Positions 1,172 through 57,466 are shown, counted from the stretch's first letter. The stretch is 64,000 bases of DNA from Patescibacteria group bacterium (GCA_027858235.1 JAQIDC010000055.1:29826-93825), one strand, 5' to 3'. Numbers and translations are program-made. The notes: generated by a model from the letters alone, not told the origin.

Positions 1172-1876
1172 TTAGTTAAAAATTCCGTCTTTTTTTATTT
1201 CTTTTTCCTCATGGTTCACCTCAGCTATCAATTTATTTCTAGATTTATAAAATTGTAAGGCAGTGAATACAAACATGCTGGCAAGCAAAATTCCTAAAAT
1301 ATTTATACCTGTTACTGCTATAAATTTATAAAAATAATCCAATTGTTTTAAAGTTAATGCTAAACCAGAAGCAGTTAAGGGAGGAATCAATGTTACAGTG
1401 ATAGCAATTCCTGGCAAAATAGAATTTAGGTCTGGTTTTATCCAAGTATAGCTTGCTGCAATCCCGGCTATGAATGAGATTACAAAAGTAATATAGCCGA
1501 TTTCCATATTTCCAAGAATCGTTATAGAGCTTATATCAAACTCGTTAAAATGCCCAACCAAAAATGCTATAAGCATAGACCAAAAGGCAGAATAAGCAAA
1601 TATTTTAAACGATCTCAAAATCACTTTAAAATTAAGAATAACCACTCCAAGAGAAATAGCCAAGATAGGTGAAAGAAGTGGTGTAACAAGCATTCCTCCT
1701 ATAACTAGAACAATATTGTCTAAAATCAATCCAAAAGAGACTATTAAAGAAGAAAGAACAACAAGTAAATAAAAATCAAACTTCGGGGCGCTTGATTCAA
1801 TAATTGTTTCACAAAAGTTATTCCTGTCTGACTGTTCAACTTTTAGAAAAGAGAAAATATCTAATACATTTTTCAT
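1172..1876 (-). CDS. Integral membrane protein, DUF389-like (multi-pass)
   Basis: 234-aa ORF with about 6 hydrophobic helices. The motif VIGGMLVTPLLSPIL resembles the DUF389 signature (GAMLIxPLMxPI). Tightly coupled to argS. Confidence 0.55.
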   Translation of the reverse strand: MKNVLDIFSFLKVEQSDRNNFCETIIESSAPKFDFYLLVVLSSLIVSFGLILDNIVLVIGGMLVTPLLSPILAISLGVVILNFKVILRSFKIFAYSAFWSMLIAFLVGHFNEFDISSITILGNMEIGYITFVISFIAGIAASYTWIKPDLNSILPGIAITVTLIPPLTASGLALTLKQLDYFYKFIAVTGINILGILLASMFVFTALQFYKSRNKLIAEVNHEEKEIKKDGIFN

Positions 1877-2012
1877 AATATACTGTTAACATATAACTAA
1901 ATTGTAGCCTATGTTGGCCATTTTGACAATCAGTAACTTAAAAAAATATTAAGCAACATTTCCATTTTTTTGTCTAATATAAGTAATAATTCTTCTCTTT
2001 TTTAATAAACCC

Positions 2013-2021
2013 TGCTATAAT
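2013..2021 (+). promoter_or_regulatory. Extended -10 promoter box TGCTATAAT for 2044..2550
   Basis: TGCTATAAT fits TGnTATAAT. It sits 23 nt upstream of the ATG at 2044, with AGGAG at 2031..2035 as the ribosome-binding site. Confidence 0.45.
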
Positions 2022-2043
2022 TCACATACAAGGAGAAAACAAT

Positions 2044-2550
2044 ATGAAGAATAATATTATACAAATTTTAATATTTGTTTTACTCATCTCTCCTCTTACA
2101 ACCAGAGCTGAAATAGACGTAAGCAGAATAGCTACTGAAAATGTAATTCATGATGCTCAAATATTTTTGGAATTACAAAATTTCGATGCTAGTTCTAGCC
2201 TTGGGGTTTTTGATATCTGGGTCAATCCTGGATCGCAATCCATAAATGCTAGTGGGCTTGTCCTGGGGTTTGCAACGAGCTCAATAAATATCTTAGGAAC
2301 ATTGAGCGGAAATTCTTTCTGTGATTTTTTTCTTGAGAATAATTTTAACAACAATACGGGCGAGTTAAGATTGAGCGGAATGAAGCCCTACCCTGGCGTA
2401 GCAACAACTAGTTTATTCGCGCAAATTATATTTGAAAAAATTGATAATGCAACAAGCACAATTTCTATTCTAGAAGATGAATCTATGGTTTTGGCTAATA
2501 ATGGATTTGCAACGAATGTGTTGGCTACTACGACTGATTTAAAACTATAG
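2044..2550 (+). CDS. Small secreted protein with cohesin-like domain
   Basis: Signal peptide MKNNIIQILIFVLLISPLTTRA. The body aligns by eye with the N-terminal domains of 3463..5202, 5227..6288 and 48479..50239 (GELRLSGMKPYPGVATTSLFAQIIF versus GGGIPRPGYTGSGGTLFSVTF). Has its own promoter, RBS and terminator. Confidence 0.55.
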   Translation: MKNNIIQILIFVLLISPLTTRAEIDVSRIATENVIHDAQIFLELQNFDASSSLGVFDIWVNPGSQSINASGLVLGFATSSINILGTLSGNSFCDFFLENNFNNNTGELRLSGMKPYPGVATTSLFAQIIFEKIDNATSTISILEDESMVLANNGFATNVLATTTDLKL

Positions 2551-2571
2551 ATGAAACTATTGTTATTTTAG

Positions 2572-2598
2572 GTATAGAGTTAATTCTATACTTTTTTT
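2572..2598 (+). terminator. Rho-independent terminator of 2044..2550
   Basis: Stem GTATAGA (2572..2578) pairs with TCTATAC (2585..2591), followed by TTTTTTT. Confidence 0.55.
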
Positions 2599-2911
2599 AA
2601 TTCAACTATGTGAACATTGGGAGTTTTTTGAGAAAAAAGAAAAACAGCTTTCTAATTCTTTATTATTAATGTGAGTATTGATAAATTTTGATAAGAGACG
2701 TGCGTAGAAAGCTCAATAAAATGTCCGCTGTTTGAGGAATGTAGTGTTAACGAAATGACGAGTTCGGAATTTTATTAGCTTTCATAGCTAAGTATCCAAA
2801 ATTTATCACTAGCGAACGATTTTGGTACTTTTTTAAAAAGTACTTAATAAAAAGGTTCTAACACAAGTTCAAATTGATACACTGTAATTCTCACTTATTA
2901 ACAGTGAGAAT

Positions 2912-3008
2912 AAAAACACACCCCGCCCATACGGGCACCCCTCTCAAGAGGGGATTTTTACAAATATCTTATTTCTGGATTCCGGACCCCTCCAGAGGCG
3001 GGCAGGCA
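2912..3008. repeat. Degenerate copy of the GC-rich palindromic element seen intact at 59100..59195
   Basis: 2912..2960 (AAAAACACACCCCG-n-CACCCCTCTCAAGAGGGGATTTTTA) matches the left arm of the 59.1-kb element. 2985..3008 (ACCCCTCCAGAGGCGGGCAGGCA) resembles a decayed right arm. Confidence 0.5.
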
Positions 3009-3408
3009 AGTCCGGAATGACAATGAAAAATTTCAAAAACTTTGATTTTGCTTGCCTTTGTGGACGTTGGAAAATTTTGGAGAAAAATGAAACGCCCGCC
3101 TGGCTCGAAGTTAACAACTTTATATAATCATAATGTTTAATATTGCTAGGCATGGACATTTTGTTTAATGTGTTAACGCCATTTCGGACAGGTAAAAATC
3201 TCTGTCCCGCCGCGGCGGGACTAGATTTTGTAGTGAAATGATCCAAAATTTTCTCAGGGAACGTTTTTGCTACTTTTCTTGCCCGATTCGCCCGCTGGCG
3301 AAGACAAAATGCCCTTGGGGTGAAAAAAGTCGAAAAAAATATCAAGATAATATTTTGCCTATTTCACTCGCTTTTGCCAAAATATTATTTTTTGAAAACC
3401 TATCACAA

Positions 3409-3448
3409 TAAAAAATAAAGTCGTACGAGTATACGACTTTATTTTTTA
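3409..3448 (-). terminator. Bidirectional rho-independent terminator downstream of 3463..5202
   Basis: Stem AAAGTCGTA (3417..3425) pairs with TACGACTTT (3432..3440). An A-run on the left and a T-run on the right flank it. It begins 23 nt past the stop at 3463. Confidence 0.6.
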
Positions 3449-3462
3449 TGTTTGAATTTTTT

Positions 3463-5202
3463 TTATTCTACTAAATCCTCAATATCTCTTATCTCCTTCA
3501 TGGTCTTCTTTTCCATGGTATCTATCTTTGATTTTAGAGCAGCTTGTGTTTCGTCTAACAGTTTCTTTTGGGCTACTGAAGATTTTCCTTTTTTAATCTC
3601 CGTGAAATCATTTTCAATCTCTTTCCTTAGTTCTTTAATATTTTCTCTCAAAACAACTTCAATCTCTGTAGCTTCTTTTTTGAGTTTTTTCTTTGTTAAC
3701 CTCGCCAGGAGTATAAACAAAATAATTATTAAAAGAATTAAAAACAGTAGACTAACAAAAACTGTAAAATAATTTACAACGAAGTCTCCTATTCTTGTGA
3801 ATATTGGAGGACTTACTAAAAATCCTATTTTTACACTGTTTTCACTGCTTAAGCCATTTGCATTTATTGCCTTGGCCCAGGCAACATAAGATCCATTTGA
3901 TAATTTATCCTCATTTATAATAAACCAATTTCCATCTTGATCTGATCTAGTGCTCTTAGTTAATAAAGTCCCTTCCTTCTGAATTGTTAATTCAATTTCT
4001 ACATTTGGTAGCGCTGTACCACTAACATACAATCTGTCAGAAGAGGTCATCTCAGATGGATAATTTACTATAACAGGAGTATCAATCGCATTAATATAGA
4101 ACTTTTGCTCTGAATAAGTTTCATTTCCAGCTGCATCAATAACTTTTACTAAAGCTGTATGCTCTCCTACTCCAAGCCCACTCACTCTCAATGTAGGGTC
4201 TTCTGGACTGGCTTCAAAAGCATTTTCAGTCAGATTGTCTATTGTTATTTGATAGGAGACTACTCCTGATAATTCATCCTTAGTTTCAAAAGAAAGTAGT
4301 GGCCAATCTTCTCCTTCTTCTTTCTTAACTTCTATTTCGAAAGGGAGAGGAGGAGAATTGTCAACTTGTATCTTGTAATGAGCTATAGTACCCCATCCAT
4401 CACCGTCTTTAAATTTTACATGTAGATAGAAAATTCCATCCTCTAAATCTGTGAATTCTTTTGTTTTAATTAAACCATCTGAAGTGTTTCCAGGGTTAGA
4501 ATCAGGAGAATCATTAAATAAATAACTTACACCACTTACTTCACTCGGGATATCCCATTCGAATTGGGCATCCTTATTTTTATACCATTTCTCCTGGTCA
4601 GGGTGAGTAACTGATATTATCTCTGGTTTTACTCTTTCCACTACTGCTGGTCTTGTTTCAACTGGTTTATTGTCTACTGGAGGATTTGCTGGAGCTATCA
4701 CTTTTGGTGAAATAGTATAACTTCCACTTCCCATACTAGCTAAAATATTTGTTCCTTTACCGTCATTGGCAAGAACCGCTCCTGAAGAAAATCTAACTTG
4801 AGCATTCTCGGCCTTTACTCCTTTAAAAGTAACTGAAAAAAGAGTTCCTCCTGAGCCGGTATAACCTGGTCTTGGAATGCCACCGCCAAAGTTTATTGAA
4901 GTACCCGTATCTGTTGGTTCTGCTGTCCAAAGATTAAATATTGAACCCGCCTTTGAGATACTAACCACATCCAATGAGTCTGTATCATAAACTACAGTCC
5001 CCTCAGCTGCATTTATAGAAACTCCATCAGAATTCACCTTCACCGTAACTGTAAAAGTAGAATTAATAACATGAGTGCCAGAAGAGGGGGTTAAATACAA
5101 TGAAGCACTTGCCGCTTGAACTGGCTTTGAATTAGATAGGCCCAATAATAACAATAATAAAACCGCAAAAAATAATTTTAATTTAAAAAATATTTTACTC
5201 AT
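3463..5202 (-). CDS. Membrane-anchored surface protein: signal peptide, cohesin-like domain, Ig-like domains, C-terminal TM helix plus charged coiled-coil tail
   Basis: 579 aa with a strong SD (GGGAGGT) before the ATG at 5202. N-terminus MSKIFFKLKLFFAVLLLLLLGL...VQAASASLYLTPSSG. Paralog of 48479..50239 along its whole length (GIFYLHVKFKDGDGWGTIAHYKIQVDNSPP versus GEWYIHVKYQNKAGWGMVAHKKFLVDTKSP). C-terminal helix VFVSLLFLILLIIILFILLA followed by a K/E-rich tail. Confidence 0.6.
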   Translation of the reverse strand: MSKIFFKLKLFFAVLLLLLLGLSNSKPVQAASASLYLTPSSGTHVINSTFTVTVKVNSDGVSINAAEGTVVYDTDSLDVVSISKAGSIFNLWTAEPTDTGTSINFGGGIPRPGYTGSGGTLFSVTFKGVKAENAQVRFSSGAVLANDGKGTNILASMGSGSYTISPKVIAPANPPVDNKPVETRPAVVERVKPEIISVTHPDQEKWYKNKDAQFEWDIPSEVSGVSYLFNDSPDSNPGNTSDGLIKTKEFTDLEDGIFYLHVKFKDGDGWGTIAHYKIQVDNSPPLPFEIEVKKEEGEDWPLLSFETKDELSGVVSYQITIDNLTENAFEASPEDPTLRVSGLGVGEHTALVKVIDAAGNETYSEQKFYINAIDTPVIVNYPSEMTSSDRLYVSGTALPNVEIELTIQKEGTLLTKSTRSDQDGNWFIINEDKLSNGSYVAWAKAINANGLSSENSVKIGFLVSPPIFTRIGDFVVNYFTVFVSLLFLILLIIILFILLARLTKKKLKKEATEIEVVLRENIKELRKEIENDFTEIKKGKSSVAQKKLLDETQAALKSKIDTMEKKTMKEIRDIEDLVE

Positions 5203-5226
5203 ACCTCCCTGTATTTAATTATTAAT

Positions 5227-6288
5227 TTAATTTTGTTCTTCTTTTTGTTTCTCCTCTAGAGAAGATTCTTTTTTACTTTTAATTTTTTGAAAAATATATC
5301 TCCCAATTTTATATAAAAAGAATATTGTTATTATTAACAATAACACACCAATGGTTATTATTAAATAGTCAAAATTCAGTGCTTTTTTAATATTGGGTTC
5401 TTCGGGAATGTATTCTACACTTCTTTCATTGCCTGCCTTATCAATGGCTTTTACTTTTATAATACTTCGTAGGCTTTGATCTGTGAGCAGAAAAGGAGTC
5501 TCTGCTATTTTCCACTTTGCCTCCTCTGATTTTACGAAAAGTTCCAATACCTTTTCTGTTAATGTTTTTTTAACTGAGAGACTTTTTGTTTCAATTAACT
5601 CATAGTGATCGATTCCACTCTGCTTGTCTATGCTAGAAAAAATAGCAAAATATTGACCCTGGTACATATTGTCTCTCTGATGCAATTCAATAACGAATGG
5701 TTCTGGTTTTGTTTTATCGCTTTTGATTAGTCTGTCATAGTCACCTACTTCAGCTCCAACTGTTTTATTTAAAACAAGACTTAAATTTTCAATCCTTAAT
5801 TTGTCCTCAGTTCCAAGGCCATCATTAATATATACTTTTGCATCTTCGAGCTTTATATCAAGAGTGTCTGGAATAGTGTCACCAACATAAAAACTAGGGA
5901 TTCTAAAAAGTATTCTTCCCACCAAATTACTATTACCGGGATCACCTGGTATTTTACCGCAATAACCACCAGGAATTCCTCCTGCCACATATAGCTCACC
6001 ACTATCATTTGCATCAAATACATCAGTTTCTGACGGTTGGTCCACCCAAACATTTAAGAGAGATTCTCCTGTTATAAAATCTTCTATATACAAAATACCA
6101 GTTGGAAATGTAATCTTAGCTTCTACCGTATTAATACAAACATCATCAATATCTAGACTAAAATTAACAGTAAAAGCATCACCAAGGTGGTATTCATTTT
6201 TTTGAGCATCAAGACTAAGTGAAGCAGCCTTAGTGTAGGCAGGAATAAGTAGGAATATAATCAATGTAGCGAATAAGTATTTTTTCAT
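5227..6288 (-). CDS. Membrane-anchored surface protein with cohesin-like N-terminal domain and C-terminal TM anchor
   Basis: 353 aa. Signal peptide MKKYLFATLIIFLLIPAYTKA. Contains ELYVAGGIPGGYCGKIPG...LVGRILFRIPS, the family motif. C-terminal helix LIITIGVLLLIITIFFLY followed by a K/E tail. Confidence 0.55.
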   Translation of the reverse strand: MKKYLFATLIIFLLIPAYTKAASLSLDAQKNEYHLGDAFTVNFSLDIDDVCINTVEAKITFPTGILYIEDFITGESLLNVWVDQPSETDVFDANDSGELYVAGGIPGGYCGKIPGDPGNSNLVGRILFRIPSFYVGDTIPDTLDIKLEDAKVYINDGLGTEDKLRIENLSLVLNKTVGAEVGDYDRLIKSDKTKPEPFVIELHQRDNMYQGQYFAIFSSIDKQSGIDHYELIETKSLSVKKTLTEKVLELFVKSEEAKWKIAETPFLLTDQSLRSIIKVKAIDKAGNERSVEYIPEEPNIKKALNFDYLIITIGVLLLIITIFFLYKIGRYIFQKIKSKKESSLEEKQKEEQN

Positions 6289-6300
6289 ATATATAATAAT

Positions 6301-6436
6301 TTTAAATTCTAAGCACTAAACCATAAACACTAAACAAATTATAAATTCTAATATTAAAATACTAAACTGTTTTAAACTTTTATGCTTGTAATTTTGAATT
6401 AGTTTAGAATTTTAATATTAGAATTTAGAGTTTTTT
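6301..6436. repeat. Long AT-rich intergenic palindrome (family copy 1)
   Basis: Perfect 18-bp inverted repeat AAATTCTAATATTAAAAT (6343..6360) / ATTTTAATATTAGAATTT (6409..6426), nested in imperfect TCTAAA/TTTAGA arms. The left arm carries TCTAAGCACTAAA and the centre carries CTGTTTTAAAC. It ends 3 nt from the stop at 6439. Confidence 0.75.
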
Positions 6437-6438
6437 CC

Positions 6439-7707
6439 TTAACCTGTCCAATAATACATCATTACAGAAAAATCAATTAAATCAACTACTCCATTTTGGT
6501 TTTGATCCGCACATTCATTATCTGTTCCCCAATGGTAAAGAAGTATAGAAAAATCTGTAATATTTACTCTCTCGTCACCATTTAAATCTGCTTCGGCACA
6601 AACAGCCTCTCCTCCAACCGTGCCAACAAAGAAACTAATAGACTTTGAAAAACCACTTTGCAGGGTATTGTCAGCTGAGGCAATAGTAAATAATGCTTTT
6701 GCAGTGTGAAACTCTTCTTCCAAGGGTTCTGTATTGAAAATTAATTCCCATTTTCCATCATCTGTACTTTCAATTGAATTGATAAATTCCTCTGGTGAAT
6801 TAATATGAACATTTACTCCTGATTCTGGAACTGTACTTCCAAAAACTGTTACTGTGTCTCCTCTTGTAACTGTTTTTTTATCTATATCTATTGTTGGGGA
6901 AATATACACCCCAGAGATATTGGTGACAGCTCCTAATGTTACTCTAAAAGTTAGAGAAAGCAAAGTCGATTTGAGACCAACGGGGTCTTCTGACCAAAAA
7001 CTAAAACTAGCAACACCAGCGGAAATTTCATCAGTTTCAAAATAGAAATTTGCCAATGTATCAGTTCTTGAAATACCTATAACCTTACCATCAAGAAGTA
7101 TTTGAACATCTGAATTTGGGTATGATTTGCCACGGACAATAACCTTGGTCTCGCCTGGTGGTACATCAGATCCAGGGTTAAAGCCGGTGGTTAATCCTGA
7201 ATTTCCACCAGTTGATCCTCCTCCACCTCCGCCAGAAGGGACATCAAAGCTTTCGCAATTTTCCAAACTAATACGACAATCAGCTGTACATATTAATGAA
7301 CCGGAGGTAAATCCAAAAGTGATACACGTCTGCTCATTATAATCAGCACCATCACATTCTTCAGAATCCTCCTTAATATTGTTTCCACAATTATAGCAAC
7401 CACTTGTGTCATAATCCGTGCAATCTGACAAGCAATCAAGATCGCCTGAATTATAATATTCTCCTGATGCGTATTCAAAGTCTAGACAAGTTAGTCCACT
7501 TACATCAATTGGAAATACAGGAGGGTCTCCTGGGTCACAAACCTCTAGTCCTTGGATAAAACCATCGCCACAAACCAGCAAAAGAGTAACGGAAGTCAAA
7601 AGGTTTTCCTGCGTTGCCGCCCTCAAACTAAATGGAGAAAGAACCAAGGAAAAAATGGCCAGATAAAATATAGAATACCTCAATTTTTCTTTTAACAAAG
7701 TTTGCAT
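6439..7707 (-). CDS. Secreted protein: Cys-rich repeats, Gly-rich linker, Ig-like domains, C-terminal dockerin
   Basis: 422 aa with a signal peptide. CGDGFIQGLEVCDPGD and CGNNIKEDSEECDGADYN resemble Myxococcus-type cysteine-rich repeats. There is a GGGGGGSTGG linker. The C-terminus DLNGDERVNITDFSILLYHW...DQNQNGVVDLIDFSVMMYYWTG is two EF-hand-like dockerin repeats. Confidence 0.7.
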   Translation of the reverse strand: MQTLLKEKLRYSIFYLAIFSLVLSPFSLRAATQENLLTSVTLLLVCGDGFIQGLEVCDPGDPPVFPIDVSGLTCLDFEYASGEYYNSGDLDCLSDCTDYDTSGCYNCGNNIKEDSEECDGADYNEQTCITFGFTSGSLICTADCRISLENCESFDVPSGGGGGGSTGGNSGLTTGFNPGSDVPPGETKVIVRGKSYPNSDVQILLDGKVIGISRTDTLANFYFETDEISAGVASFSFWSEDPVGLKSTLLSLTFRVTLGAVTNISGVYISPTIDIDKKTVTRGDTVTVFGSTVPESGVNVHINSPEEFINSIESTDDGKWELIFNTEPLEEEFHTAKALFTIASADNTLQSGFSKSISFFVGTVGGEAVCAEADLNGDERVNITDFSILLYHWGTDNECADQNQNGVVDLIDFSVMMYYWTG

Positions 7708-7727
7708 CAGGGGATATTGTAATAAAC

Positions 7728-8792
7728 TTATTTATGTCTTTCATTGTCTTGATATTTTGATGCTTTCTTGCCTATCCATTTCCAAAAACGGACTTTTCCT
7801 TCAGCAAAAGACGAACCAAGCAGACCAAAGACAAAACCAAGAGGTTTCCCTATGAGAAAATAGAGGACTAAAAGAAGATATCTCCAAGATTTAATCTTAA
7901 CGAGAAGAGCTAGAATTATTAATAATATAAAAGCATAAAGAGCCATTAGCATCCAAGGCCAAATCCCAAAATCAGGAGCAGCGGCTCCCATTTCTCCAGC
8001 TGGAGATATTGTGAATGTTTTATCATCAGTTTTAATAATTTCGTTATCTTTGTATACTTTTATTAAAGCCCAATATTGACCTGGATCTAGATTAACAGGG
8101 AAAGTCGCCTCAACATCGGCAACCTCAAAAGGACCAACTTTATCAAAGCTTTTATCATCTAATGAAGCTAGAGTTTTTTTCTTTGAGATATCGGTTATGT
8201 CAATATGGACCCTAGATGGTGCGACATCTAAATTCCCAAGATTCTCAAGAGTCATCACAGCCTTTAGCCTATAAAAAAACCATGAAAATATTTTCATATT
8301 CCATGGAAAACTTAACTGTTCAAAATTATCGATTTCAATTTTTCTGATTTTAAAATCAAAAATTGTTAAATTTGACACTGTTAAATCAATATCAACTCGG
8401 GCACCAAGGGCAATTGCAACTCCGCCAGTTTTTTTATCTTTTGGAGAAATTCTTATATTTATAAAACCTTTATAAACATCCAGGGTTGCATCTTGAGGAA
8501 CATCAACAACAACGACCATTAGAACCTGAAGTTTGCCTTTGGGTAGGTCAAAAATTTTTCCTTCTTTGATGGATATCCAAGAAGCAATCTCTGGGGCATT
8601 TATAACTACAGTTGCCTCTAAGTCTTCATCTGCTGCGGATCTCAACAGCGTGATTTGTTGTTCAAAGTGAGTCCCTGGAGTCAACTTATCTGATCTTACA
8701 TAGGGTGGTGAGATACCAAAACCAGCGCTAACAGCTGTAGCCTGAAAAAAAATAGATGAAACTATTAAGATTGATAGTAATTTTTTGAACAT
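7728..8792 (-). CDS. DUF916/DUF3324-like surface protein with C-terminal TM anchors
   Basis: 354 aa. Signal peptide ends ...ATAVSAGFGISPPYV. Shares motifs with 54202..57466 paralogs (ENLGNLDVAPSRVHIDITD versus NTGNVHLQPKGNIVIKD). Has C-terminal hydrophobic helices. Confidence 0.45.
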   Translation of the reverse strand: MFKKLLSILIVSSIFFQATAVSAGFGISPPYVRSDKLTPGTHFEQQITLLRSAADEDLEATVVINAPEIASWISIKEGKIFDLPKGKLQVLMVVVVDVPQDATLDVYKGFINIRISPKDKKTGGVAIALGARVDIDLTVSNLTIFDFKIRKIEIDNFEQLSFPWNMKIFSWFFYRLKAVMTLENLGNLDVAPSRVHIDITDISKKKTLASLDDKSFDKVGPFEVADVEATFPVNLDPGQYWALIKVYKDNEIIKTDDKTFTISPAGEMGAAAPDFGIWPWMLMALYAFILLIILALLVKIKSWRYLLLVLYFLIGKPLGFVFGLLGSSFAEGKVRFWKWIGKKASKYQDNERHK

Positions 8793-8943
8793 TAAATAAC
8801 TAAAATAACTAAAATATTTAGCATTACAATTTAAAAATAAATCATTTTTGAAAGTAAATTTTTTTACTAAAAATTAGCAAAAAACAGCTTATGAACTTTT
8901 CTACTGTTACTAATAATATACTATAAAACAAAAAATAAATCAA

Positions 8944-8976
8944 CAAAAAAGATGGTCTCATGTGACCATCTTTTTC
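8944..8976 (-). terminator. Rho-independent terminator downstream of 8997..10769
   Basis: Stem GATGGTC (8951..8957) pairs with GACCATC (8964..8970), extended by A/T runs on both sides. It lies 21 nt past the stop. Confidence 0.6.
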
Positions 8977-8996
8977 TATATATATTATAGTATTTT

Positions 8997-10769: not shown

Positions 10770-10837
10770 GGGGACTATTTAAATTTTAATTAATAACTTA
10801 TATTTCTGTAGATATACTTATCCACAATATTAATATT

Positions 10838-10846
10838 ATTATAACA
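10838..10846 (-). promoter_or_regulatory. Extended -10 box TGTTATAAT (minus strand) for 8997..10769
   Basis: Plus-strand ATTATAACA is TGTTATAAT on the minus strand. TTGACA occurs a few nt upstream but is too close to act as a -35. Confidence 0.45.
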
Positions 10847-10887
10847 CATTTTGTCAAAAACCTACAATCATTATCTTAATAAAAATA

Positions 10888-11355: not shown

Positions 11356-11356
11356 A

Positions 11357-12553: not shown

Positions 12554-12566
12554 ATTTATATAAATA

Positions 12567-12692: not shown

Positions 12693-12750
12693 TTTTTTAA
12701 ACATTAAATATCGTAAAATTTAATTAAAAACTATAAATTTAAAAATAAAC

Positions 12751-14073: not shown

Positions 14074-14076
14074 ATT

Positions 14077-14155: not shown

Positions 14156-14158
14156 TTT

Positions 14159-30655: not shown

Positions 30656-30713
30656 ATTTTTATTATTTATAATAAACTACTCTAATTTTAACACAATTAT
30701 CACTTTTTTAAAA

Positions 30714-48478: not shown

Positions 48479-50239
48479 TTATTTTGTTTTCCTTTTTAAA
48501 TAAATCTCTTTATTTACATCCTCAATTTCTTTTCCAATAAACTCTTCTGAAATATCTAGAGCATCTTGTAGCTTATCCTTTACTCTTTTCTCTGACTCAG
48601 AAAGACCTGTTTTTTTATCAGCTAATTCCATTAGTTCTTCAACTTCCTCACGTAGGGCAGTAAATATTTCTCCTAATTTTAATTTTGCTTCATCTGTTTC
48701 TCGGGCTATTCTTATTCTTTCTTCTCCAAACTTGTGTTTAATAAACCAAATATATGTTATTAATCCTAGTATTATTAAAAGTAAGATTAAAATAATCACT
48801 AAACCATAAGATTCTATTATGCTTGGAGCTATTACTACCAAAATGTGTTTGGATGTTTTGAAACTTTGGGCCCCTCTATCATCAACAATCCAAGCCTGAA
48901 TTTCGTAATTTCCTTTTTCTAATTTTTCTTTATGAAAATATGACCAATTACCCTCTTCATCTGTTCTGGTTGTAAATACTTTAATGTCTTTATCAGATGT
49001 CCCTATACTTATATTTATATTTACAGATGGATAAAATGATTTTCCTCGTATAACCAACTCTTCATTTGTTTTTATTATATTTGGGATGTCTGAAATTATA
49101 GGTGATTTCAATGGTTCAACAAAAAAGTCAATAGAAGAAGAAGCAATATTCTGAGCATTGTCATAAATTATCAATTGGATATTGTGTTCACCTGGATCGA
49201 CCCTGTCCATCTTATACCTTCCATTTGAAATCATTCCCGTTTCAAGAGTCTTAACTTCGTCTCCTTTAACAAGTTCGTAATAAGCTATTCCTGAAGTTTC
49301 ATCGCTAGCATTAAAAACAAGTTCTGGTGAGGGATTGTTGTCATCTCCATCATTATCAACTCTAACACCATTTAAAATAGGTGATTTTGTATCAACTAAG
49401 AACTTTTTGTGAGCAACCATTCCCCATCCTGCTTTATTCTGATATTTAACGTGTATATACCATTCTCCATCCTCAACATCATCAAACTTTTTAGTTTCGA
49501 TAATTCCATCAGGAATTGGTCCTGGGTCAGATTCGGCTTCGTCTGTTATGGATATACTTACCCCGGTCAGCTCAGCTAGCATTTTCCATGAAAATTCAGG
49601 ATCATTATTTGAATACCACACATCATCTTCTTTGTGCGTCTTTGAGTTAATTTCTGGTTTTGGAGGCAATATTCCACGAACAACTTCTTTTTCTTCTGGT
49701 TCAGGTTTAGTTGGTTCAGGTTTTGGCTCTTCTTCTTTTGGCTCTATCAAAACATAGGTAGCATTACCATAACCCTCGACAACGTCCGTGCCTTTTCCAT
49801 CTTGGGCTAAAACAGATCCAGAAGAAAAAGTAACCGAAGTATTGCCTGCTTTTTTAACATTGAAAACAATAGAAAAAATTAAACCAGCATTGCCTGTATA
49901 GGCACCTGGCAAACCTCCCCCGTATGAAATAGTACCAGCTGAATTTGAATAAGTTGGGTCAGTTACCCATAATTTAAAAATAGTTCCAGAATCAGAAAGT
50001 CTAGAAACACTTAAATATTCTGGATCAAATTTTAAACTTCCCTCTGAGGCATTAATACCAGGACTTCCTCCGCTATTAACCATTACTTTTGCAGTTATTG
50101 TCCCACCCTGAGTGTATTCACCACTAGATGGAGACAAAAACAAAGTTGCCCCCGCAGCATTAACAGTGGCACTAAAAAGTGGTAATAAATTAATAACAAA
50201 AAATGCTATTAATATAAATAAAAATTTTATCCTCCTCAT
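48479..50239 (-). CDS. Membrane-anchored surface protein with cohesin-like domain (paralog of 3463..5202)
   Basis: 586 aa. Signal peptide, then AAGATLFLSPSSGEYTQGGTITAKVMVNSGGSPGINASEGSLKFDPEYL...GGGLPGAYTGNAGLIFSIVF. C-terminal TM LVIILILLLIILGLITYIWFI plus a coiled-coil tail. Confidence 0.6.
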   Translation of the reverse strand: MRRIKFLFILIAFFVINLLPLFSATVNAAGATLFLSPSSGEYTQGGTITAKVMVNSGGSPGINASEGSLKFDPEYLSVSRLSDSGTIFKLWVTDPTYSNSAGTISYGGGLPGAYTGNAGLIFSIVFNVKKAGNTSVTFSSGSVLAQDGKGTDVVEGYGNATYVLIEPKEEEPKPEPTKPEPEEKEVVRGILPPKPEINSKTHKEDDVWYSNNDPEFSWKMLAELTGVSISITDEAESDPGPIPDGIIETKKFDDVEDGEWYIHVKYQNKAGWGMVAHKKFLVDTKSPILNGVRVDNDGDDNNPSPELVFNASDETSGIAYYELVKGDEVKTLETGMISNGRYKMDRVDPGEHNIQLIIYDNAQNIASSSIDFFVEPLKSPIISDIPNIIKTNEELVIRGKSFYPSVNINISIGTSDKDIKVFTTRTDEEGNWSYFHKEKLEKGNYEIQAWIVDDRGAQSFKTSKHILVVIAPSIIESYGLVIILILLLIILGLITYIWFIKHKFGEERIRIARETDEAKLKLGEIFTALREEVEELMELADKKTGLSESEKRVKDKLQDALDISEEFIGKEIEDVNKEIYLKRKTK

Positions 50240-50251: not shown

Positions 50252-50689
50252 TTAAACTTTTTGAATTTCTATTTTCATTTTACCTTTTTGTAATCTTAGA
50301 AAAGGCAATTTCAAAACCAAAATTCCATTTTTAACCTTAGCATCAATTTTAGAAACATCAACTTCTTGTGGTAGAATGATTTGTCTGTAAAACGAACCCC
50401 AAGAACATTCTTGTCTTAAGTAATTCTTAGCGTCTTCTTCTACATCAATCAAGGGCAACATCCTTTTTCCCTTTAGCGTTAAGACATCATTCTCATTCTC
50501 GATGGAAATATCAAGAGTTTGAACATTAATCCCTGCTACCAAAGCAATAATGTAAATTTCTTCCTTTGTTTGAAAAATATCTACATCAAGCTGCATAAAC
50601 CCTTGAGGTTTTTTTTCTTTTTTTGGTTCTTCTTTCTTCGTGTGCTCGTCTGATTCTATTTTGTCTTTAATTTTATCTAGAAAGCCCAT
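50252..50689 (-). CDS. Small heat-shock protein (Hsp20/alpha-crystallin family)
   Basis: 145 aa with SD AAAGGAG. Contains DVDIFQTKEEIYIIALVAGI...LTLKGKR...GSFYRQIILPQEVDVSKIDAKVKNGILVLKLP, an alpha-crystallin domain pattern. Confidence 0.85.
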   Translation of the reverse strand: MGFLDKIKDKIESDEHTKKEEPKKEKKPQGFMQLDVDIFQTKEEIYIIALVAGINVQTLDISIENENDVLTLKGKRMLPLIDVEEDAKNYLRQECSWGSFYRQIILPQEVDVSKIDAKVKNGILVLKLPFLRLQKGKMKIEIQKV

Positions 50690-50988: not shown

Positions 50989-52761
50989 CTATCCTGTCCA
51001 ATAAAACATCATAATAGAAAAATCGGTCAAATCAACATTCCCTGAATCATTTTGATCTGCGCATGCATTGTCTGTATTCCACCAATAAAGCATAATAGAA
51101 AAATCGGTAATGTTTACCTTCCCATCGCCATTAAGATCTCCGTTGGCACACTCAGTTGTTTGTTCTTCTACCTGTTCACCTACTCCAATATTTATTATGC
51201 CCGAGAATTCCGAATAGCCTAAACCCTCCTTGTATGATCTGGCTTTTAATCTATATTGCCCGCCAAATGCTTCGTCCGTATTTAAGATAATATTCCAAAG
51301 ACCCAGAGAATCAACATCTGCTTGTTGTTTTATAATTTCCTCTTCTCTGAGAGCTCTTTCGAGATAGGGATAAAACCATACTTCTGTAAAAGTGCTGGCC
51401 GCCCCATAGCCGTGCAATGCCATTGAATTCCCTGGGTCAACTTCCATAATACTTGTATTGAGGGTTGGTGATATGAAAATATCTGAAACAGCTGATTTGG
51501 TCCCCTCTTCAACATAAAAGGTTGTGTTATAAGTTAATGAATTTTTTCCTTCACGATCAGCTGCCCAAATGCCAAAAGTATAAACTCCACGAGGAAGCTC
51601 ATCTATCCCAAGACTAAAAACCCCAACACTATTTGCTAAAACATTTTGACTGGCTACTCCATCGACTAGCAGATAAACTCTGCTGCCTGGGTATGCAAAG
51701 CCTGAAAACTCAACTGCCGGGTCAGCTAGAGGGACATCATATGGATCAAGTGTACCAGAAGTGACGCCTGTTCCTCCTCCGCCGCCACCATCAGTTCCGC
51801 CATCATCAACAAGTTCATCTCCAATGCCATCCTCTGTAGATGTAGAATCACTATCCCCTGTTCCAACTTCCCCCTCAACTGATTCAACATAAAAAAGAAT
51901 TACATAGTCATCAATATCATCAACAGCATATTGATCTCGACATCGTATATAATATGCATGAAAACCACCAGTAAGGGCTGTTAGAGTTTCTGAATGAAAA
52001 TAGTTCCCAGTATATCCAAAATCATCTGTCATTGAAGTAAAGGGAGTATTTGAAGCTGTCGAATAACGACAATCAGCACTATAATTGCTTACTAAAGACA
52101 TAATGGTTGAAACAGTTCCAAAAGCAAGTGTTCCCGAAGGAGAACCACGTGATCTTATTTTTGGCATATACGATGAAACTGTTACAGCCTCTACTATTGC
52201 TACCATTGGTTCTGCTCTATCTAGAAGATTATTAGAGCTATCAAAAGTTTCAACCTCAAGTCCATAGGAGCCTGCATCTCCTGGATTGATAATATATGTA
52301 TCTCCAAATTCTTCATGGACAGCAATGTCACCAATTTTTATTTGAACATAAGCTCCGGCTGGAATACCTAAATTATTTCGAAGGGTTATTTCAATCGCGG
52401 AGGTAGTTGCTGACCCTGTTATTGAAACTCCATCAGCGGTAAAAATAGGAAAAGAAAACAAATTTCTTTCAACATACCCAGTATCTCTATCTGTTGAAGT
52501 TGCTAAATCAATATCAGTATAATCAAGAGCAACTGGGATTAAAAAAAAGTTATCTTCTGGAGAAATTTTTATTTTCCCACTTGGCGGAATAGCTTCTGTT
52601 GTCCTAAATTTTATTGTATGATTTGCTTGATATCCTGGACGAGAAGTAGTAATATAGTCACTAATTTGTGTTAAATTTTTTGCTTCAATTTTAGGAGCAA
52701 CAGAAAAAACCATCACTGATAGCAATAAAATAATTTTAATTTTCCTATACAATTTATTCAC
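50989..52761 (-). CDS. Secreted chimeric protein: N-terminal domain of the 57742/59343 subunit family, Gly-rich linker, Ig-like domains, C-terminal dockerin
   Basis: The track start at 52848 is TTG and overlaps the upstream gene. GTG at 52761 gives VNKLYRKIKIILLLSVMVFSVAPKIEA, a clean signal peptide. ISDYITTSRPGYQANHTIKFRTT aligns with VSDTISTSAPTTLANHTVGFTT. C-terminus DLNGDGKVNITDFSIMLYWW...DQNDSGNVDLTDFSIMMFYWTG. Confidence 0.7.
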   Translation of the reverse strand: MNKLYRKIKIILLLSVMVFSVAPKIEAKNLTQISDYITTSRPGYQANHTIKFRTTEAIPPSGKIKISPEDNFFLIPVALDYTDIDLATSTDRDTGYVERNLFSFPIFTADGVSITGSATTSAIEITLRNNLGIPAGAYVQIKIGDIAVHEEFGDTYIINPGDAGSYGLEVETFDSSNNLLDRAEPMVAIVEAVTVSSYMPKIRSRGSPSGTLAFGTVSTIMSLVSNYSADCRYSTASNTPFTSMTDDFGYTGNYFHSETLTALTGGFHAYYIRCRDQYAVDDIDDYVILFYVESVEGEVGTGDSDSTSTEDGIGDELVDDGGTDGGGGGGTGVTSGTLDPYDVPLADPAVEFSGFAYPGSRVYLLVDGVASQNVLANSVGVFSLGIDELPRGVYTFGIWAADREGKNSLTYNTTFYVEEGTKSAVSDIFISPTLNTSIMEVDPGNSMALHGYGAASTFTEVWFYPYLERALREEEIIKQQADVDSLGLWNIILNTDEAFGGQYRLKARSYKEGLGYSEFSGIINIGVGEQVEEQTTECANGDLNGDGKVNITDFSIMLYWWNTDNACADQNDSGNVDLTDFSIMMFYWTG

Positions 52762-52783
52762 TCTGTAAAAAATATTTAATTTC

Positions 52784-53200
52784 CTAATTACTGACGTGTT
52801 GTCTCGGCATTGTATTGGACTTCTTTTTTCTCCGCCAATCCATAACAAAGTTAATCAAAATAAGTAAAAATAAAACAACTATTCCTATTATCATCCCCCA
52901 GATTACTTTATTTTGTAGGACTGAGCTTGCAGATTTCAAATCTGTTTCTCTTTTGTCTAATTGAGACTCTCTGGTGTTTAGCCAATCTTCCTTGTCCTTC
53001 AATTGAAGGGCCAGTGTATTCATCGGGTTTGGAGGGACAGAAGCTGAAGAGCCTATCCCAACCGCTCGGGAGAAATTTGCTCCCAAATATTTTGTATAAT
53101 CAATTGGACTAACACCGACAGTATGCAAAAACGAAAATAATATAAAAGAAAATAATAATATTCTAAATTTATGAATATGTTTTACAGTTTTTTTTAACAC
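52784..53200 (-). CDS. Small bitopic membrane protein with coiled-coil ectodomain (hypothetical)
   Basis: 138 aa with a GTG start. N-terminal helix FRILLFSFILFSFL, central coiled coil (QLKDKEDWLNTRESQLDKRETDLK), and C-terminal helix MIIGIVVLFLLILINFV. Confidence 0.4.
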   Translation of the reverse strand: MLKKTVKHIHKFRILLFSFILFSFLHTVGVSPIDYTKYLGANFSRAVGIGSSASVPPNPMNTLALQLKDKEDWLNTRESQLDKRETDLKSASSVLQNKVIWGMIIGIVVLFLLILINFVMDWRRKKKSNTMPRQHVSN

Positions 53201-54201: not shown

Positions 54202-55320
54202 TTATTTATTTTTTTCCTGTTCTGAATTTGTCGAAGAATTATTAATTATCTCTTTTAAATCAACTACGTCACTCCTATTATTCTTTTTTTTCATTGGGGT
54301 TTGTGTTATTTTTTCCTCTCCTGCTTGCCCTGAGCTTATTGAAGGGTGCTGAGCTTTTATTCTCTCTATTTCTTTTTGATTTTGTCTAATTGTTTTTCTG
54401 ATATAAAACTTAATCATTAAAAAAATTAACAATAAAAATCCTAATATACTTCCCAAAACTATAGAAACAATTTTAAAATCTATATACCAGAAATAAAATG
54501 TCCTAGTATCAACTTCGGTTGTTTGCTCTCCATAATGGACAGTGATAACGGCATTGTATTTCCCCATTTTAAAAATTCCTGATTCACCTTCCCACGAAAA
54601 ATCCCAAGATTTTGTGCTCTTCGGCAAGACATTTCCGTAGGCTGTGTCTTTGTTTATATCAATAACATCTTTTTCGTTACCAAACATATCCTTGATTACA
54701 ATATTGCCTTTCGGTTGCAAATGAACATTACCTGTATTTTCAAATCGGAGCTTAAAATTGACCTTCGGCTCTTTATAATAAGTTTTATTGGTGCTAAATT
54801 CTCTTATCTTTCCTTCCTCAATAACATCCCCAGAGATATTTACTAAAATAAGTGAAGATATCATTGAAGAAATACTTAATCCTGAACCATAAATATCCTC
54901 ATTTGGTTTAGTCCCTACCAATACAGCCGCATAATGCCCTCCTGGTTCTGCCGTTTCTGGAACTTCAATTTCAAAAGGTATTTCAACGCTACCATAAGGT
55001 GCTATTTCAAAAGGACCATCTTGAATATCCATCCATTGTCTCAAAAACCCAGATTTACTCCCCTCTCCTTCTGACTCTTCATTTGAGATTAATTCAACTC
55101 CTCCCTCTGTGCTACTTCTAAAATCTTTTATATCAGTATATACAACCAGCTTTTCTTTATTATTGTTAACGAGCTTTACTGTGCTAAGCCATCTCTCCCC
55201 AGGATTCATATTATTTTTTATGAGAGGTGGAGTTAAGGTCATTTTCAAACTATCCTCTTGAGCAAGGACAGCAGAAGAAAAAAACAAAGACAGAATTATT
55301 ATAAATAGATATTTTTTCAT
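54202..55320 (-). CDS. DUF916/DUF3324-like surface protein with C-terminal TM anchor (paralog 1 of 3)
   Basis: 372 aa with a signal peptide. Contains PGGHYAAVLVGTKP and ENTGNVHLQPKGNIVIKDMFGNE. C-terminal helix IVSIVLGSILGFLLLIFLMI plus a cytoplasmic tail. Confidence 0.5.
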   Translation of the reverse strand: MKKYLFIIILSLFFSSAVLAQEDSLKMTLTPPLIKNNMNPGERWLSTVKLVNNNKEKLVVYTDIKDFRSSTEGGVELISNEESEGEGSKSGFLRQWMDIQDGPFEIAPYGSVEIPFEIEVPETAEPGGHYAAVLVGTKPNEDIYGSGLSISSMISSLILVNISGDVIEEGKIREFSTNKTYYKEPKVNFKLRFENTGNVHLQPKGNIVIKDMFGNEKDVIDINKDTAYGNVLPKSTKSWDFSWEGESGIFKMGKYNAVITVHYGEQTTEVDTRTFYFWYIDFKIVSIVLGSILGFLLLIFLMIKFYIRKTIRQNQKEIERIKAQHPSISSGQAGEEKITQTPMKKKNNRSDVVDLKEIINNSSTNSEQEKNK

Positions 55321-56349
55321 TTATTTTGATTTTAAATTTATTATTTTTTCCTCCTTGCTTCCTTCTTTTATAACCTTTATTCTTTCGGGCATTGCCTTGC
55401 TTTCGGAGTGTTTGTAATGATATGTTCTTTTAAAAATAAGCGCACTTAAAAGAATTATAAAAAGTGAAATTCCTATTCCAAAAAAAAGCAAGAAAGGAAG
55501 AGTCGCTACAATAACATAAACAGTATCTTGAATCTCTTTTGAAATTTTTTCTCCATATTCAATTTCCATTCTAGCTTTATATTTTCCGGTTTTTAGATTA
55601 TTATTCCCCCTAAGTTCAAGAGTAAAAATTTTGCCAGCTGCAGCAGTTTTAAATTCTGGATTTATACTGATAATATCTACCTCTTCACCTCTCTTATTAT
55701 ACAAATAAACATTCCCTTTCGGGGCCAAGTCAACATTGCCTGAATTATTTAGTTCCAAAAATAAAACTGGCCTAGGGTCAATAAATATTTTTTTACTTGG
55801 ATAATATTTTAATATACTAGCCTTTTCAATCGTCTGATCTTCAACTTTTAAATTAATAAAAAGTTTTGGCGGACTTGTTTTGACTGCATTTTCTTCAGCT
55901 TCCACCCGATGGGCTCCATGGGCAAAGGTGATACTTACAAAATATTCATCAGGGATAGCATCATGGCTTACATCAATTTTAATTGGCAGGGTATATTCTT
56001 CTCCAGGGGATATGTCAATGGCATTTCTCTTAATACTTATCCATTTAGTCATTAAATATTCTCTATCGAGCAATCCTTCTGAGATTTTTTTTTCACCTTC
56101 GTCCAAGTCTTCGAGTAAGGGATAAATATTTAACTTATGCGTGGTGTTATTTTTTAAAACTACACTATATTCAAGCATTGCTCTTGGGGCAACTGAATCA
56201 TCAATAACCTTTGGTTCTAATGATAGATCTCCCTCTTTTTGGGCATGGGCAATGTTACAAAGTAAAGAAGGTGAATCACAATATGAGAGAAGCCGACCTG
56301 GGGCAAAAGAAAATACAAATATAATTATAATAATAAATATTTTTTTCAT
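55321..56349 (-). CDS. DUF916/DUF3324-like surface protein with C-terminal TM anchor (paralog 2 of 3)
   Basis: The ATG at 56349 (MKKIFIIIIIFVFSF) is preferred over the TTG at 56361. Contains NNSGNVDLAPKGNVYLYNKRGEE and C-terminal helix LPFLLFFGIGISLFIILLSALIF. The stop abuts the next start. Confidence 0.5.
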   Translation of the reverse strand: MKKIFIIIIIFVFSFAPGRLLSYCDSPSLLCNIAHAQKEGDLSLEPKVIDDSVAPRAMLEYSVVLKNNTTHKLNIYPLLEDLDEGEKKISEGLLDREYLMTKWISIKRNAIDISPGEEYTLPIKIDVSHDAIPDEYFVSITFAHGAHRVEAEENAVKTSPPKLFINLKVEDQTIEKASILKYYPSKKIFIDPRPVLFLELNNSGNVDLAPKGNVYLYNKRGEEVDIISINPEFKTAAAGKIFTLELRGNNNLKTGKYKARMEIEYGEKISKEIQDTVYVIVATLPFLLFFGIGISLFIILLSALIFKRTYHYKHSESKAMPERIKVIKEGSKEEKIINLKSK

Positions 56350-56353
56350 GTTC

Positions 56354-57466
56354 TTAAGCAAAGACTATTAAATAAACTATTCCTATCAAAAGAATTACCG
56401 AAATTACAACCACTGAAACAATTAATACAAGATGAGTGGTTGGAGATGGCCCTTCATATGTTTTTACATATTTAACTTCAGCCAAACCAGCCACCTCCAT
56501 CGCTTTTTTAATAGCTTTGTTTTTATACATTCTTAAAAGAAGCCAAATGATAATAGCGAGGAATATTATTGCAGTCACAATGGCAGAAATAATTTTCCAG
56601 GGTAAAATCCAAAAAGATCGTTCAGCATAAAGAGTCTGCATCCCTTGTCCACCCATCCCCGTTGGAGTCCCGTAAGTTAGGCCCAGAGTTGCGGTATATC
56701 TACCAACGGCCATATCACCTATCCAATTATGTTCAAATCTTCTAAAAGTTTTTGGCAAAATATTGGAAACCTTTTCGTTAAATATTATTTCTTCTACTGT
56801 TTTTCCTATTTGATTTTTAATCGTGATTGTGCCAACTGGGGCTCCGTGAACATTCCCTTTGTTTTCAAGTCTACTAGTAAACTTAATATCAAAAGGAGTA
56901 TTATAATACTCCTTGTCAGTGCTAAATTCTCTAACAGTTATCTCTTCATTGGCATCGCCTTTTACTTGAAATAATATCAGGGTTGCAGCCTGTTGTCCTA
57001 TAGACATTCCCGCTCCTCTATTTTCAGAGTCTTGTTTAAACTCAGGCGGTTTTGTTCCGAAAACTACAGCACCATAATACCCCCCAGGTCCAACTTCCAT
57101 TGGGACTCTGACAAAAAATGGGATATCCTTTGATTCATTTGGCAAAAATGAAATTCCGCTGGTAGCTACCTCAATCCAAGAAGCCAGAAAAGAACCGCTC
57201 TCACTACCTGGTTCAATAAGTTTAGCTTGACCTAATTCTCCCTCAGCCTTAAAATCTCTTAAAAAAACAAATATTTCTCTTGGAGCCTCTGATTCATTTG
57301 TGACTGTAACAAACTTTGAAATAACTTGCCCAGGATCAACCAAGTCTTCAATTCTTACTGGCGATATTTTTATTCCATCTTCACTTTGAGCAAAAACTTT
57401 TTGGCCTAAAAAAAATGAAAAGAGAAAAGATAAAACAAAAAATGCTACAAAATACTTTTTAGTCAT
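56354..57466 (-). CDS. DUF916/DUF3324-like surface protein with C-terminal TM anchors (paralog 3 of 3)
   Basis: 370 aa. Signal peptide ...VFAQSEDGIKISPVRIEDLVDPGQ. Contains PGGYYGAVVFGTKP and ENKGNVHGAPVGTITIKNQIGKT. Two C-terminal helices. Confidence 0.5.
   Translation of the reverse strand: MTKKYFVAFFVLSFLFSFFLGQKVFAQSEDGIKISPVRIEDLVDPGQVISKFVTVTNESEAPREIFVFLRDFKAEGELGQAKLIEPGSESGSFLASWIEVATSGISFLPNESKDIPFFVRVPMEVGPGGYYGAVVFGTKPPEFKQDSENRGAGMSIGQQAATLILFQVKGDANEEITVREFSTDKEYYNTPFDIKFTSRLENKGNVHGAPVGTITIKNQIGKTVEEIIFNEKVSNILPKTFRRFEHNWIGDMAVGRYTATLGLTYGTPTGMGGQGMQTLYAERSFWILPWKIISAIVTAIIFLAIIIWLLLRMYKNKAIKKAMEVAGLAEVKYVKTYEGPSPTTHLVLIVSVVVISVILLIGIVYLIVFA

Follow-up and report, generated by a model that had tools for sequence, protein, structure and literature searches.

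Do cohesin and dockerin modules encoded by a candidate phyla radiation (CPR) bacterium build an enzyme complex, or do they hold a surface protein on the cell? The question is raised by a stretch of 64,000 nucleotides (nt) from a Patescibacteria group bacterium (GCA_027858235.1 JAQIDC010000055.1:29826-93825), hereafter the window. A sequence-only reading of the window had pointed to four proteins that begin with a shared cohesin-like domain and two that end in dockerins, and had proposed their pairing as a membrane-anchoring device. All six open reading frames (ORFs) that it named were recovered at the positions listed below, within a set of 287 stop-to-stop ORFs of at least 50 amino acids (aa). 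They belong to one type A cluster (about 1172-15787) and one type B cluster (48479-60437), and several other genomes also have both. Our answer is that these clusters probably represent a conserved Parcubacterial envelope cassette, in which transmembrane (TM)-anchored cohesins would hold a secreted dockerin protein on the cell. Since the arrangement is kept across many related species, tethering of a surface protein is its probable purpose, not a cellulose-degrading machine, and for the same reason the finding reaches past the four plus two proteins first noticed.

The six proteins are given below. Family scores refer to a profile hidden Markov model (HMM) built from database homologues of 48479-50239 (residues 26-175). 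The Pfam gathering scores are 24.1 bits for Cohesin (PF00963) and 22.9 bits for Dockerin_1 (PF00404).

2044..2550, + strand: coh_free, a 168-aa secreted protein with a signal peptide and a divergent cohesin-like domain, without a TM anchor (family HMM E 7e-9, no Pfam match).
3463..5202, - strand: COH_L(A), a 579-aa type I membrane protein with a signal peptide, an N-terminal cohesin (about 4684-5109), a PKD/Big_13 immunoglobulin (Ig)-like stalk, a TM helix (3706-3762) and a charged tail of 80 aa in the cytoplasm (Pfam Cohesin 23.9 bits, Big_13 37.5 bits, family HMM E 2e-52).
5227..6288, - strand: coh_S, a membrane protein of 353 aa in which the signal peptide is followed by a cohesin-fold domain (about 5758-6225) and a second beta-sandwich, and then by a TM helix with a charged tail of 27 aa (family HMM E 2e-12, AlphaFold2 (AF2) and Foldseek, no Pfam match).
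6439..7707, - strand: DOC(A), a 422-aa secreted protein whose signal peptide is followed by two DUF4215-like repeats rich in Cys, a Gly-rich linker and a pair of Ig-like domains, with a compact dockerin at the C-terminus (6442-6606; Pfam Dockerin_1 26.5 bits).
48479..50239, - strand: COH_L(B), a 586-aa paralogue of COH_L(A) with a cohesin (about 49715-50158), a Big_13/DUF7743 stalk, a TM helix (residues 479-497) and a helical cytoplasmic tail of 89 aa that is conserved (Pfam Cohesin 28.5 bits, family HMM E 2e-69).
50989..52848, - strand: DOC(B), a secreted protein of about 590-619 aa with an N-terminal head common to p365, p364 and p891, then a pair of Ig-like domains, and a compact dockerin at the C-terminus (50992-51156; Pfam Dockerin_1 27.1 bits).

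Linkage of the cohesin and dockerin genes across species

Relatives of the long cohesin protein were searched for in GTDB, with one genome per species, and are encoded in 230 species genomes. From these, 79 loci were fetched, nearly all with Patescibacteria labels, and their ORFs were searched with the cohesin HMM together with a dockerin HMM built from both dockerin modules of the window. In 60 of the 63 loci that extend at least 3 kb upstream of the long cohesin gene, this gene is preceded by a dockerin ORF on the same strand (median gap 944 nt). The module is located at the extreme C-terminus in nearly all dockerin ORFs (67/69). Across 1.18 Mb of loci, all but about one of these ORFs are upstream of cohesin genes, and the clearest exception is a fusion protein in locus L064. 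The pairing of cohesin and dockerin is a prediction from genomic context, and this context is strong.

The recurring core consists of a p354-type membrane protein, the dockerin protein, (a short cohesin or Hsp20) and the long cohesin. Around this core, type A has the order fn3 protein, ABC, FtsX, (p163), p590, p354, DOC(A), coh_S, COH_L(A), and in close relatives it is followed downstream by a convergent small free cohesin gene and then DUF389. Homologues of coh_free are found as a small ORF that converges on the long cohesin gene (L047, L072 and L074), and small ORFs positive for the cohesin HMM occupy the same position in L051, L055, L060 and L067. Type B has the order p365, p370, p346, p372, FGE-sulfatase-like, p138, DOC(B), Hsp20, COH_L(B).

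The exception in L064 (12389-13141) is a single 251-aa protein that matches both the cohesin and the dockerin HMM, an adaptor-like fusion. A comparable ORF in L075 (12398-13162) matches the cohesin HMM, and its dockerin-type loops were judged by eye. Both ORFs, of about 250 aa, lie downstream of a type A operon in Kaiserbacteria/Paceibacterota genomes and resemble adaptor scaffoldins.

Some operon-bearing loci (L014, L030, L041, L045, L050 and others) bear the label Gammaproteobacteria, Promethearchaeota (Loki), Aminicenantia, Deferribacteres or Humimicrobiaceae. Mis-binning of contigs or coarse labelling is the probable cause, rather than true occurrence.

Identity of the two modules

Among the 287 ORFs of the window, the family HMM picks only the four proteins said to share an N-terminal domain; no fifth protein was matched, and the next-best E is 0.55. 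The motifs that had been noticed in them stand in register in a four-way alignment (the IN(A/T) strand, the GGxP loop and the DGxGT loop). BLASTP links 3463-5202 to 5227-6288 (E 9e-10), and COH_L(A) and COH_L(B) are full-length paralogues with 33% identity over 585 residues. The cohesin-like reading of this domain is borne out by Pfam for the long proteins, by structure prediction for 5227-6288 and by the family HMM for 2044-2550. COH_L(B) exceeds the Pfam cut-off, COH_L(A) falls 0.2 bits under it, and Pfam Cohesin gave no match at E <= 1 on 5227-6288 and 2044-2550. The majority of the database homologues of the long family have a precomputed PF00963 match. An NCBI entry named 'cohesin domain-containing protein [Patescibacteria group bacterium]' matches 48479-50239 at 100% identity, and the relatives of 48479-50239 are proteins of about 585 aa from Parcubacteria, Falkowbacteria, Jorgensenbacteria and Nealsonbacteria. 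For 2044-2550, the one link to the family is its profile match, which suggests a cohesin-like domain.

The nine-strand fold that had been expected of these domains is seen in the AF2 model of one of the four proteins, 5227-6288. The model was made from an alignment of 47 homologues, with a mean predicted local distance difference test (pLDDT) score of 86.5. Its residues 22-177 contain nine strands, and these are followed by a second beta-sandwich and a long TM/tail helix. When it was compared with the PDB by Foldseek, the top 35 or so matches were cohesins, with E down to 6e-11 and target template modelling scores (TM-scores) of 0.7-0.77. The best of them is 2w1n, the cohesin+FN3 double module of Clostridium perfringens GH84C (E 6e-11), and the matches include Ruminococcus flavefaciens type III cohesins and C. 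thermocellum OlpA/OlpC. The model supports a cohesin fold even for this divergent member.

Alternatively, the cohesin-fold tips could be host-directed adhesins or glycan-binding modules that use the fold as a mere beta-sandwich scaffold, with the C-terminal module of the DOC proteins as an EF-hand-like Ca-binding stabiliser. A life in attachment to hosts is assumed for CPR bacteria (PMC10633639), and the Pfam results, with two of four domains failing the Cohesin model and a third just short of it, leave room for such a use; Foldseek rank 34 is a fibrillar-adhesin CLIPPER domain (9ifr). However, many of the cohesin structures matched by coh_S derive from solved cohesin-dockerin complexes, and the adhesin idea leaves the constant adjacency of a dockerin gene unexplained. 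We consider it improbable, and the dockerin scores given below add to this judgement.

The topology of three of the four proteins agrees with display from a membrane. A hydropathy scan found an N-terminal hydrophobic signal in all four, as the sequence-only reading had it. Three of them had been described as ending in a TM helix and a charged coiled-coil tail. Each of the three does have one C-terminal TM helix and a tail with about 48% charged residues (80, 27 and 89 aa), but the 27-aa tail of 5227-6288 is too short for a coiled coil. No TM helix was found in 2044-2550 by the same scan, and this protein would be a free secreted domain. The COH_L family is conserved along its entire length, and since this includes the cytoplasmic tail, in which the conserved sequence runs ALREEV...DKKPGLSESEK...LDISEEFI, the tail may have an intracellular partner. 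The coh_S family has at least 1479 database homologues, nearly all named 'hypothetical' and without a Pfam match, and Cys51 and Cys110 are invariant in it.

Both DOC proteins carry the Ca-binding loops that had been claimed for their C-termini. A six-frame search of the 64 kb with the pattern D-x-[ND]-x-[DNS]-[GE]-x-[VI]-x-x-x-D gave exactly four matches, all within the last 55 residues of the two proteins (6472-6588 and 51022-51138). With the helix that follows, the loops read DLNGDERVNITD+FSILLYHW and DQNQNGVVDLID+FSVMMYYW in one protein and DLNGDGKVNITD+FSIMLYWW and DQNDSGNVDLTD+FSIMMFYW in the other. Both modules exceed the Dockerin_1 cut-off. The EF-hand models, whose matches overlap the dockerin and would suit a Ca-binding stabiliser, fall under theirs. 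Compared with PDB sequences, the 55-residue module finds dockerins as its best matches and a few sub-threshold calmodulin-type EF-hand proteins (E > 0.5). The Bacteroides cellulosolvens dockerin 2y3n_B aligns over both repeats, with a linker that is 6 residues shorter in the window module. By its sequence, the module is a compact variant with two near-symmetric 22-residue repeats, a linker of 5-7 residues and two conserved Cys. Given the low AF2 confidence reported below, the description 'textbook two-repeat dockerins' is too strong.

The C-terminal 250 residues of DOC(A) and DOC(B) are 38% identical. Sampled homologues of DOC(A) share 53-88% identity, and 12 Cys of the head are invariant. Conservation within the protein is highest in the dockerin, which is near-invariant (C.EADLN.DGRVNLTDFSILLYYWGTDN.CADQNQNG.VDLIDFSIMMYYWTG). 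The invariant Cys pairs of coh_S and of the dockerin fit a predicted extracytoplasmic location. Since type A and type B dockerins are almost identical in close relatives, cross-binding between the two clusters of the window is plausible. The head of DOC(B) resembles 57742-58839.

With its listed TTG start, DOC(B) shares 65 nt with the upstream gene 52784-53200. As the hydrophobic core of the signal occupies residues 37-55, the true start is probably located 25-30 codons further downstream.

Several observations weigh against the proposed tether. The sequence of 2044-2550 is degenerate at the GGxP and DGxGT motifs that are common to the other three cohesins. In profile searches of PDB sequences with the cohesin families, the cohesin matches were not significant (E 0.06 and 0.24). 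In the AF2 model of full-length DOC(A), the dockerin (residues 365-422) has a pLDDT of 30-38 and no more than a helix of 4 residues; for the Ig-like stalk, which was modelled, adhesin and S-layer Ig domains are the only Foldseek matches. The near-invariant dockerin faces cohesin domains that have diverged to 20-46% identity, which is unusual for a co-evolving pair. Finally, the type B slot corresponding to coh_S is held by Hsp20, a cytoplasmic gene that the model does not explain.

Two of these points, the near-invariant dockerin beside variable cohesins and the dockerin left unfolded in the AF2 model, lend some weight to a single envelope complex with another contact, in which the dockerin would bind peptidoglycan, the S-layer or p354/p372, the cohesin tips would bind another ligand, and synteny would reflect co-function only. 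Furthermore, the p354/p372-type proteins are linked to the DOC gene as tightly as the cohesins are, and the modules resemble, below threshold, the NCBIfam 'GC-type dockerin domain-anchored protein'. To our knowledge, however, every characterised dockerin partner is a cohesin. The two modules also co-occur in almost every locus with sufficient upstream sequence and meet inside one L064 protein, and all four cohesin-like domains and both dockerins of the window are confined to the two clusters. On balance, we find such a complex unlikely, if the most serious competitor, and retain the cohesin-dockerin tether as the preferred reading.

The cellulosome question, the proposed tether and its neighbours

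Cohesin and dockerin are the hallmark modules of cellulosomes, and a minimal cellulosome-like complex that degrades polysaccharide is the obvious thing to look for. Domain scans of about 40 window proteins found no glycoside hydrolase (GH), carbohydrate esterase (CE), polysaccharide lyase (PL) or carbohydrate-binding module (CBM), and none was found in the operons. There was also no match to S-layer homology (SLH) or sortase domains in the scanned proteins, and no significant match to an LPXTG-type anchor, the lone Gram_pos_anchor match (in 8997-10769) having an E of 0.15. The earlier statement that GH, CBM, sortase and LPXTG signals are absent is thus borne out. Each protein has one cohesin, and there is no multi-cohesin scaffoldin; the 64-kb window as a whole holds only the four cohesin-like domains and two dockerins.

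The cargo of the dockerin, for the most part Ig-like stalks or Cys-rich domains, gives a similar picture. When the 55-aa module was searched against 1.84 billion representatives, 241 matches were obtained at E <= 1e-10, nearly all of them C-terminal. A Pfam scan of 85 of these 241 proteins showed chiefly Big_6, Big_13 and DUF4215, and no carbohydrate-active enzymes were found among the 85; 67 of them also match Dockerin_1 at E <= 1e-4. The peptidase domains C11, M23 and S8, which occur once each, are the one feature of this wide search that could speak for an enzyme complex. The analysis contradicts a mini-cellulosome, which we hold to be extremely improbable: without enzymes, CBM or a multi-cohesin scaffoldin, the cellulosome reading was rejected. 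Surface attachment, as first proposed, stands as far as it is non-cellulosomal, since no enzymes, CBM, SLH or sortase were found. A 'general anchoring device' is too broad, however, as the dockerin is nearly confined to two conserved non-enzymatic families. Because this cargo is mainly Big_6, Big_13 and DUF4215, without carbohydrate-active enzymes, the module's distribution points to a dedicated structural complex rather than general enzyme display.

With the domain identities, the topology, the conserved linkage and the absence of cellulosomal parts as observed, the tether may be pictured as follows. The anchors are single-pass type I membrane proteins, in long (about 585 aa) and short (about 350 aa) forms, each with one cohesin at its N-terminal, membrane-distal tip on an Ig/PKD-like stalk. 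They sit in the cytoplasmic membrane via the C-terminal TM helix with its charged cytoplasmic tail. The upstream gene provides a Sec-secreted, non-enzymatic stalk protein, whose head is Cys-rich or variable and is followed by two Ig-like domains and, at the end, a compact two-loop Ca-binding dockerin. This dockerin would plug into the cohesin or cohesins and keep the secreted protein non-covalently on the cell; we infer the physical contact, its Ca dependence, and which of the four cohesins pairs with which of the two dockerins. In type A, two or three cohesins might serve each dockerin. The head would project past the wall or S-layer and, as its putative biological role, could bind host or substrate.

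A bolder version can be imagined, in which the cassette is a lineage-wide, possibly essential, envelope-spanning organelle. The cohesin tails would couple to intracellular partners such as Hsp20, the dockerin-tipped stalk would be the main structure by which these ultra-small cells attach to hosts or anchor an S-layer, and cohesin-dockerin would have been recruited as core cell architecture, not as an accessory enzyme scaffold. We offer this as an unlikely speculation.

Little is known of how CPR/Patescibacteria construct their envelopes and become attached to hosts, and the majority of their surface proteins go under the name 'hypothetical'. The cassette offers a concrete predicted protein-protein interaction, between a cohesin of about 150 aa and a 55-aa dockerin, that is conserved in hundreds of Parcubacterial species. 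If true, it would represent a new mode of cohesin-dockerin anchoring, in which a TM helix is combined with a conserved tail in the cytoplasm. A new role would come with it, since the pair would serve for dedicated structural tethering in a lineage that is non-cellulolytic and host-dependent. Protein-engineering toolkits would also receive a very small, highly conserved dockerin.

The neighbouring genes of both clusters include further membrane proteins and the Hsp20 mentioned above.

7728..8792, - strand: p354, with a signal peptide, an ectodomain rich in beta structure and TM helices at the C-terminus; in 25 loci its gene stands directly upstream of DOC(A).
50252..50689, - strand: Hsp20/alpha-crystallin between DOC(B) and COH_L(B), without a signal peptide (Pfam HSP20 E 3e-15); in the same place in 18 related loci.
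54202..57466, - strand: p372, p346 and p370, three tandem paralogous membrane proteins with a signal peptide, an ectodomain and a TM segment (BLASTP, hhalign).

As judged by hhalign (probability 98-99%), p354 is remotely homologous to p372, p370 and p346, and this superfamily is always found upstream of the dockerin gene. The order of p372, p346 and p370 is kept in L001-L007 and L012. One member, p372 (54202-55320), matches WxLIP_PGBD / DUF916 (PF06030) at 19.3 bits (E 1e-3), below the 27.3-bit cut-off. The coh_S and DOC(A) genes are adjacent and in the same frame, with 4 stop codons between them.

The window, which stems from a Parcubacteria/Falkowbacteria-like genome, has a GC content of 26-40%, and nearly all of its genes share one strand. 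Scans with Rfam and for tRNAs gave no matches in it. Its other contents are a type IV pilus cluster, two-component systems, a MacB-type ABC/FtsX pair and a giant fn3-rich protein of 4675 aa. The C-terminal 520 or so residues of this giant ORF (15845-29872) are 42% identical to the 590-aa p590 (8997-10769) of the type A operon, and its fn3 blocks are also common to 61083-63758. In the pilus cluster (30134-38435), a PilB-like ATPase is encoded together with a PilC-like platform protein, a PilM-like protein that has an SH3 domain, and several N-methyl pilins; genes for response regulators and large PAS histidine kinases flank the cluster. Beside the type B cohesin gene, at 48055-48327, lies the sole plus-strand gene of its neighbourhood, a 90-aa ORF composed almost wholly of Lys/Ala/Pro/Val repeats (AKKPAKKK-like) with a histone-H1-like composition, which is kept beside the cohesin gene in L001.

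Between the convergent 2044-2550 and 3463-5202, a gap of about 910 nt (2551-3462) holds no convincing ORF and no Rfam match. It has GC-rich patches of 49-51% against about 33% for the genome, and is only about 280 nt long in the close relative L074. The gap contains an element of about 50 nt, aaaaacacaccccg...cacccctctcaagaggggattttt, with a hairpin and a T-run. Copies of it form an inverted pair at 59099-59195 and also occur in another Patescibacteria genome (L011 6153-6191); the element is probably a repetitive extragenic palindromic (REP)-like or terminator repeat.

Comparison with known systems

That these proteins contain the two modules is already known, since NCBI names them 'cohesin domain-containing' and 'dockerin type I repeat-containing'. 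In the full-text literature on cohesin or dockerin in CPR, Patescibacteria or Parcubacteria, we found no description of this operon. The nearest report concerns a dockerin-domain envelope protein that was described as essential in a cultivated Saccharibacterium (PMC10633639). It suggests that such modules can be central to CPR biology, although the operon is not comparable. This protein, SEML1_0315 of Southlakia, was considered as a case of the same cassette and rejected, its neighbours being a hydrolase and a tRNA. The word 'cohesin' is absent from the supplementary files of that paper, including the genome annotation table.

The closest functional parallel is seen in the anchoring scaffoldins of cellulosomes (C. 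thermocellum SdbA/OlpA/OlpC and R. flavefaciens ScaE/ScaC), where a cell-attached cohesin captures the C-terminal dockerin of a secreted protein. Structures of anchoring scaffoldins (2bm3, 3ul4, 4dh2 and 5lxv) are among the Foldseek matches of the coh_S cohesin fold. The window proteins are anchored otherwise, by a TM helix at the C-terminus and a conserved tail in the cytoplasm, instead of SLH repeats or a sortase/LPXTG signal. They also have a single cohesin at the N-terminal tip, a non-enzymatic cargo, no CBM or cellulose system, and a CPR host.

Cohesin-dockerin pairs are used outside cellulosomes as well. In the glycoside-hydrolase toxins of C. perfringens (GH84C, 2w1n; GH33 cohesin, 2vo8; FIVAR-dockerin, 2jnk/2ozn), the modules join secreted or wall-bound enzymes together, whereas those of the window would join a membrane anchor to a non-enzymatic stalk protein. 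One of these structures, 2jnk, is among the PDB sequence matches of the window dockerin. A cohesin from a non-cellulolytic organism is also known from Archaeoglobus fulgidus (2xdh), and it is the fourth-ranked structural match of coh_S (target TM-score 0.77). We know of no conserved operon with TM-anchored cohesins for the A. fulgidus pair. Its cohesin comes from an archaeal protein of another architecture, and the cohesin-dockerin pair has been used for surface display (PMC9705933).

Two further systems are similar in concept. The NCBIfam family NF041540 has a C-terminal dockerin-type module as an anchoring tag on non-cellulosomal surface proteins. It is the only NCBIfam model with E < 0.01 on the DOC proteins, which score 21.8 and 18.4 bits, below the 29-bit cut-off, and hence are not members; no NCBIfam family scored above its cut-off on any of the proteins scanned. 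The DOC proteins also differ in their low-GC CPR lineage and their shorter linker. In the WxL/DUF916 (WxLIP) operons of Firmicutes, several secreted and TM-anchored surface proteins assemble non-covalently, as the cassette would. Those loci are without cohesin and dockerin, however, and the window is without WxL domains, the WxLIP match of p372 being sub-threshold. From the anchoring scaffoldins and the pairs of C. perfringens and A. fulgidus, the Parcubacterial cassette is distinguished by a TM-helix anchor with a conserved tail in place of SLH or sortase, a non-enzymatic cargo, a compact dockerin and a conserved CPR operon.

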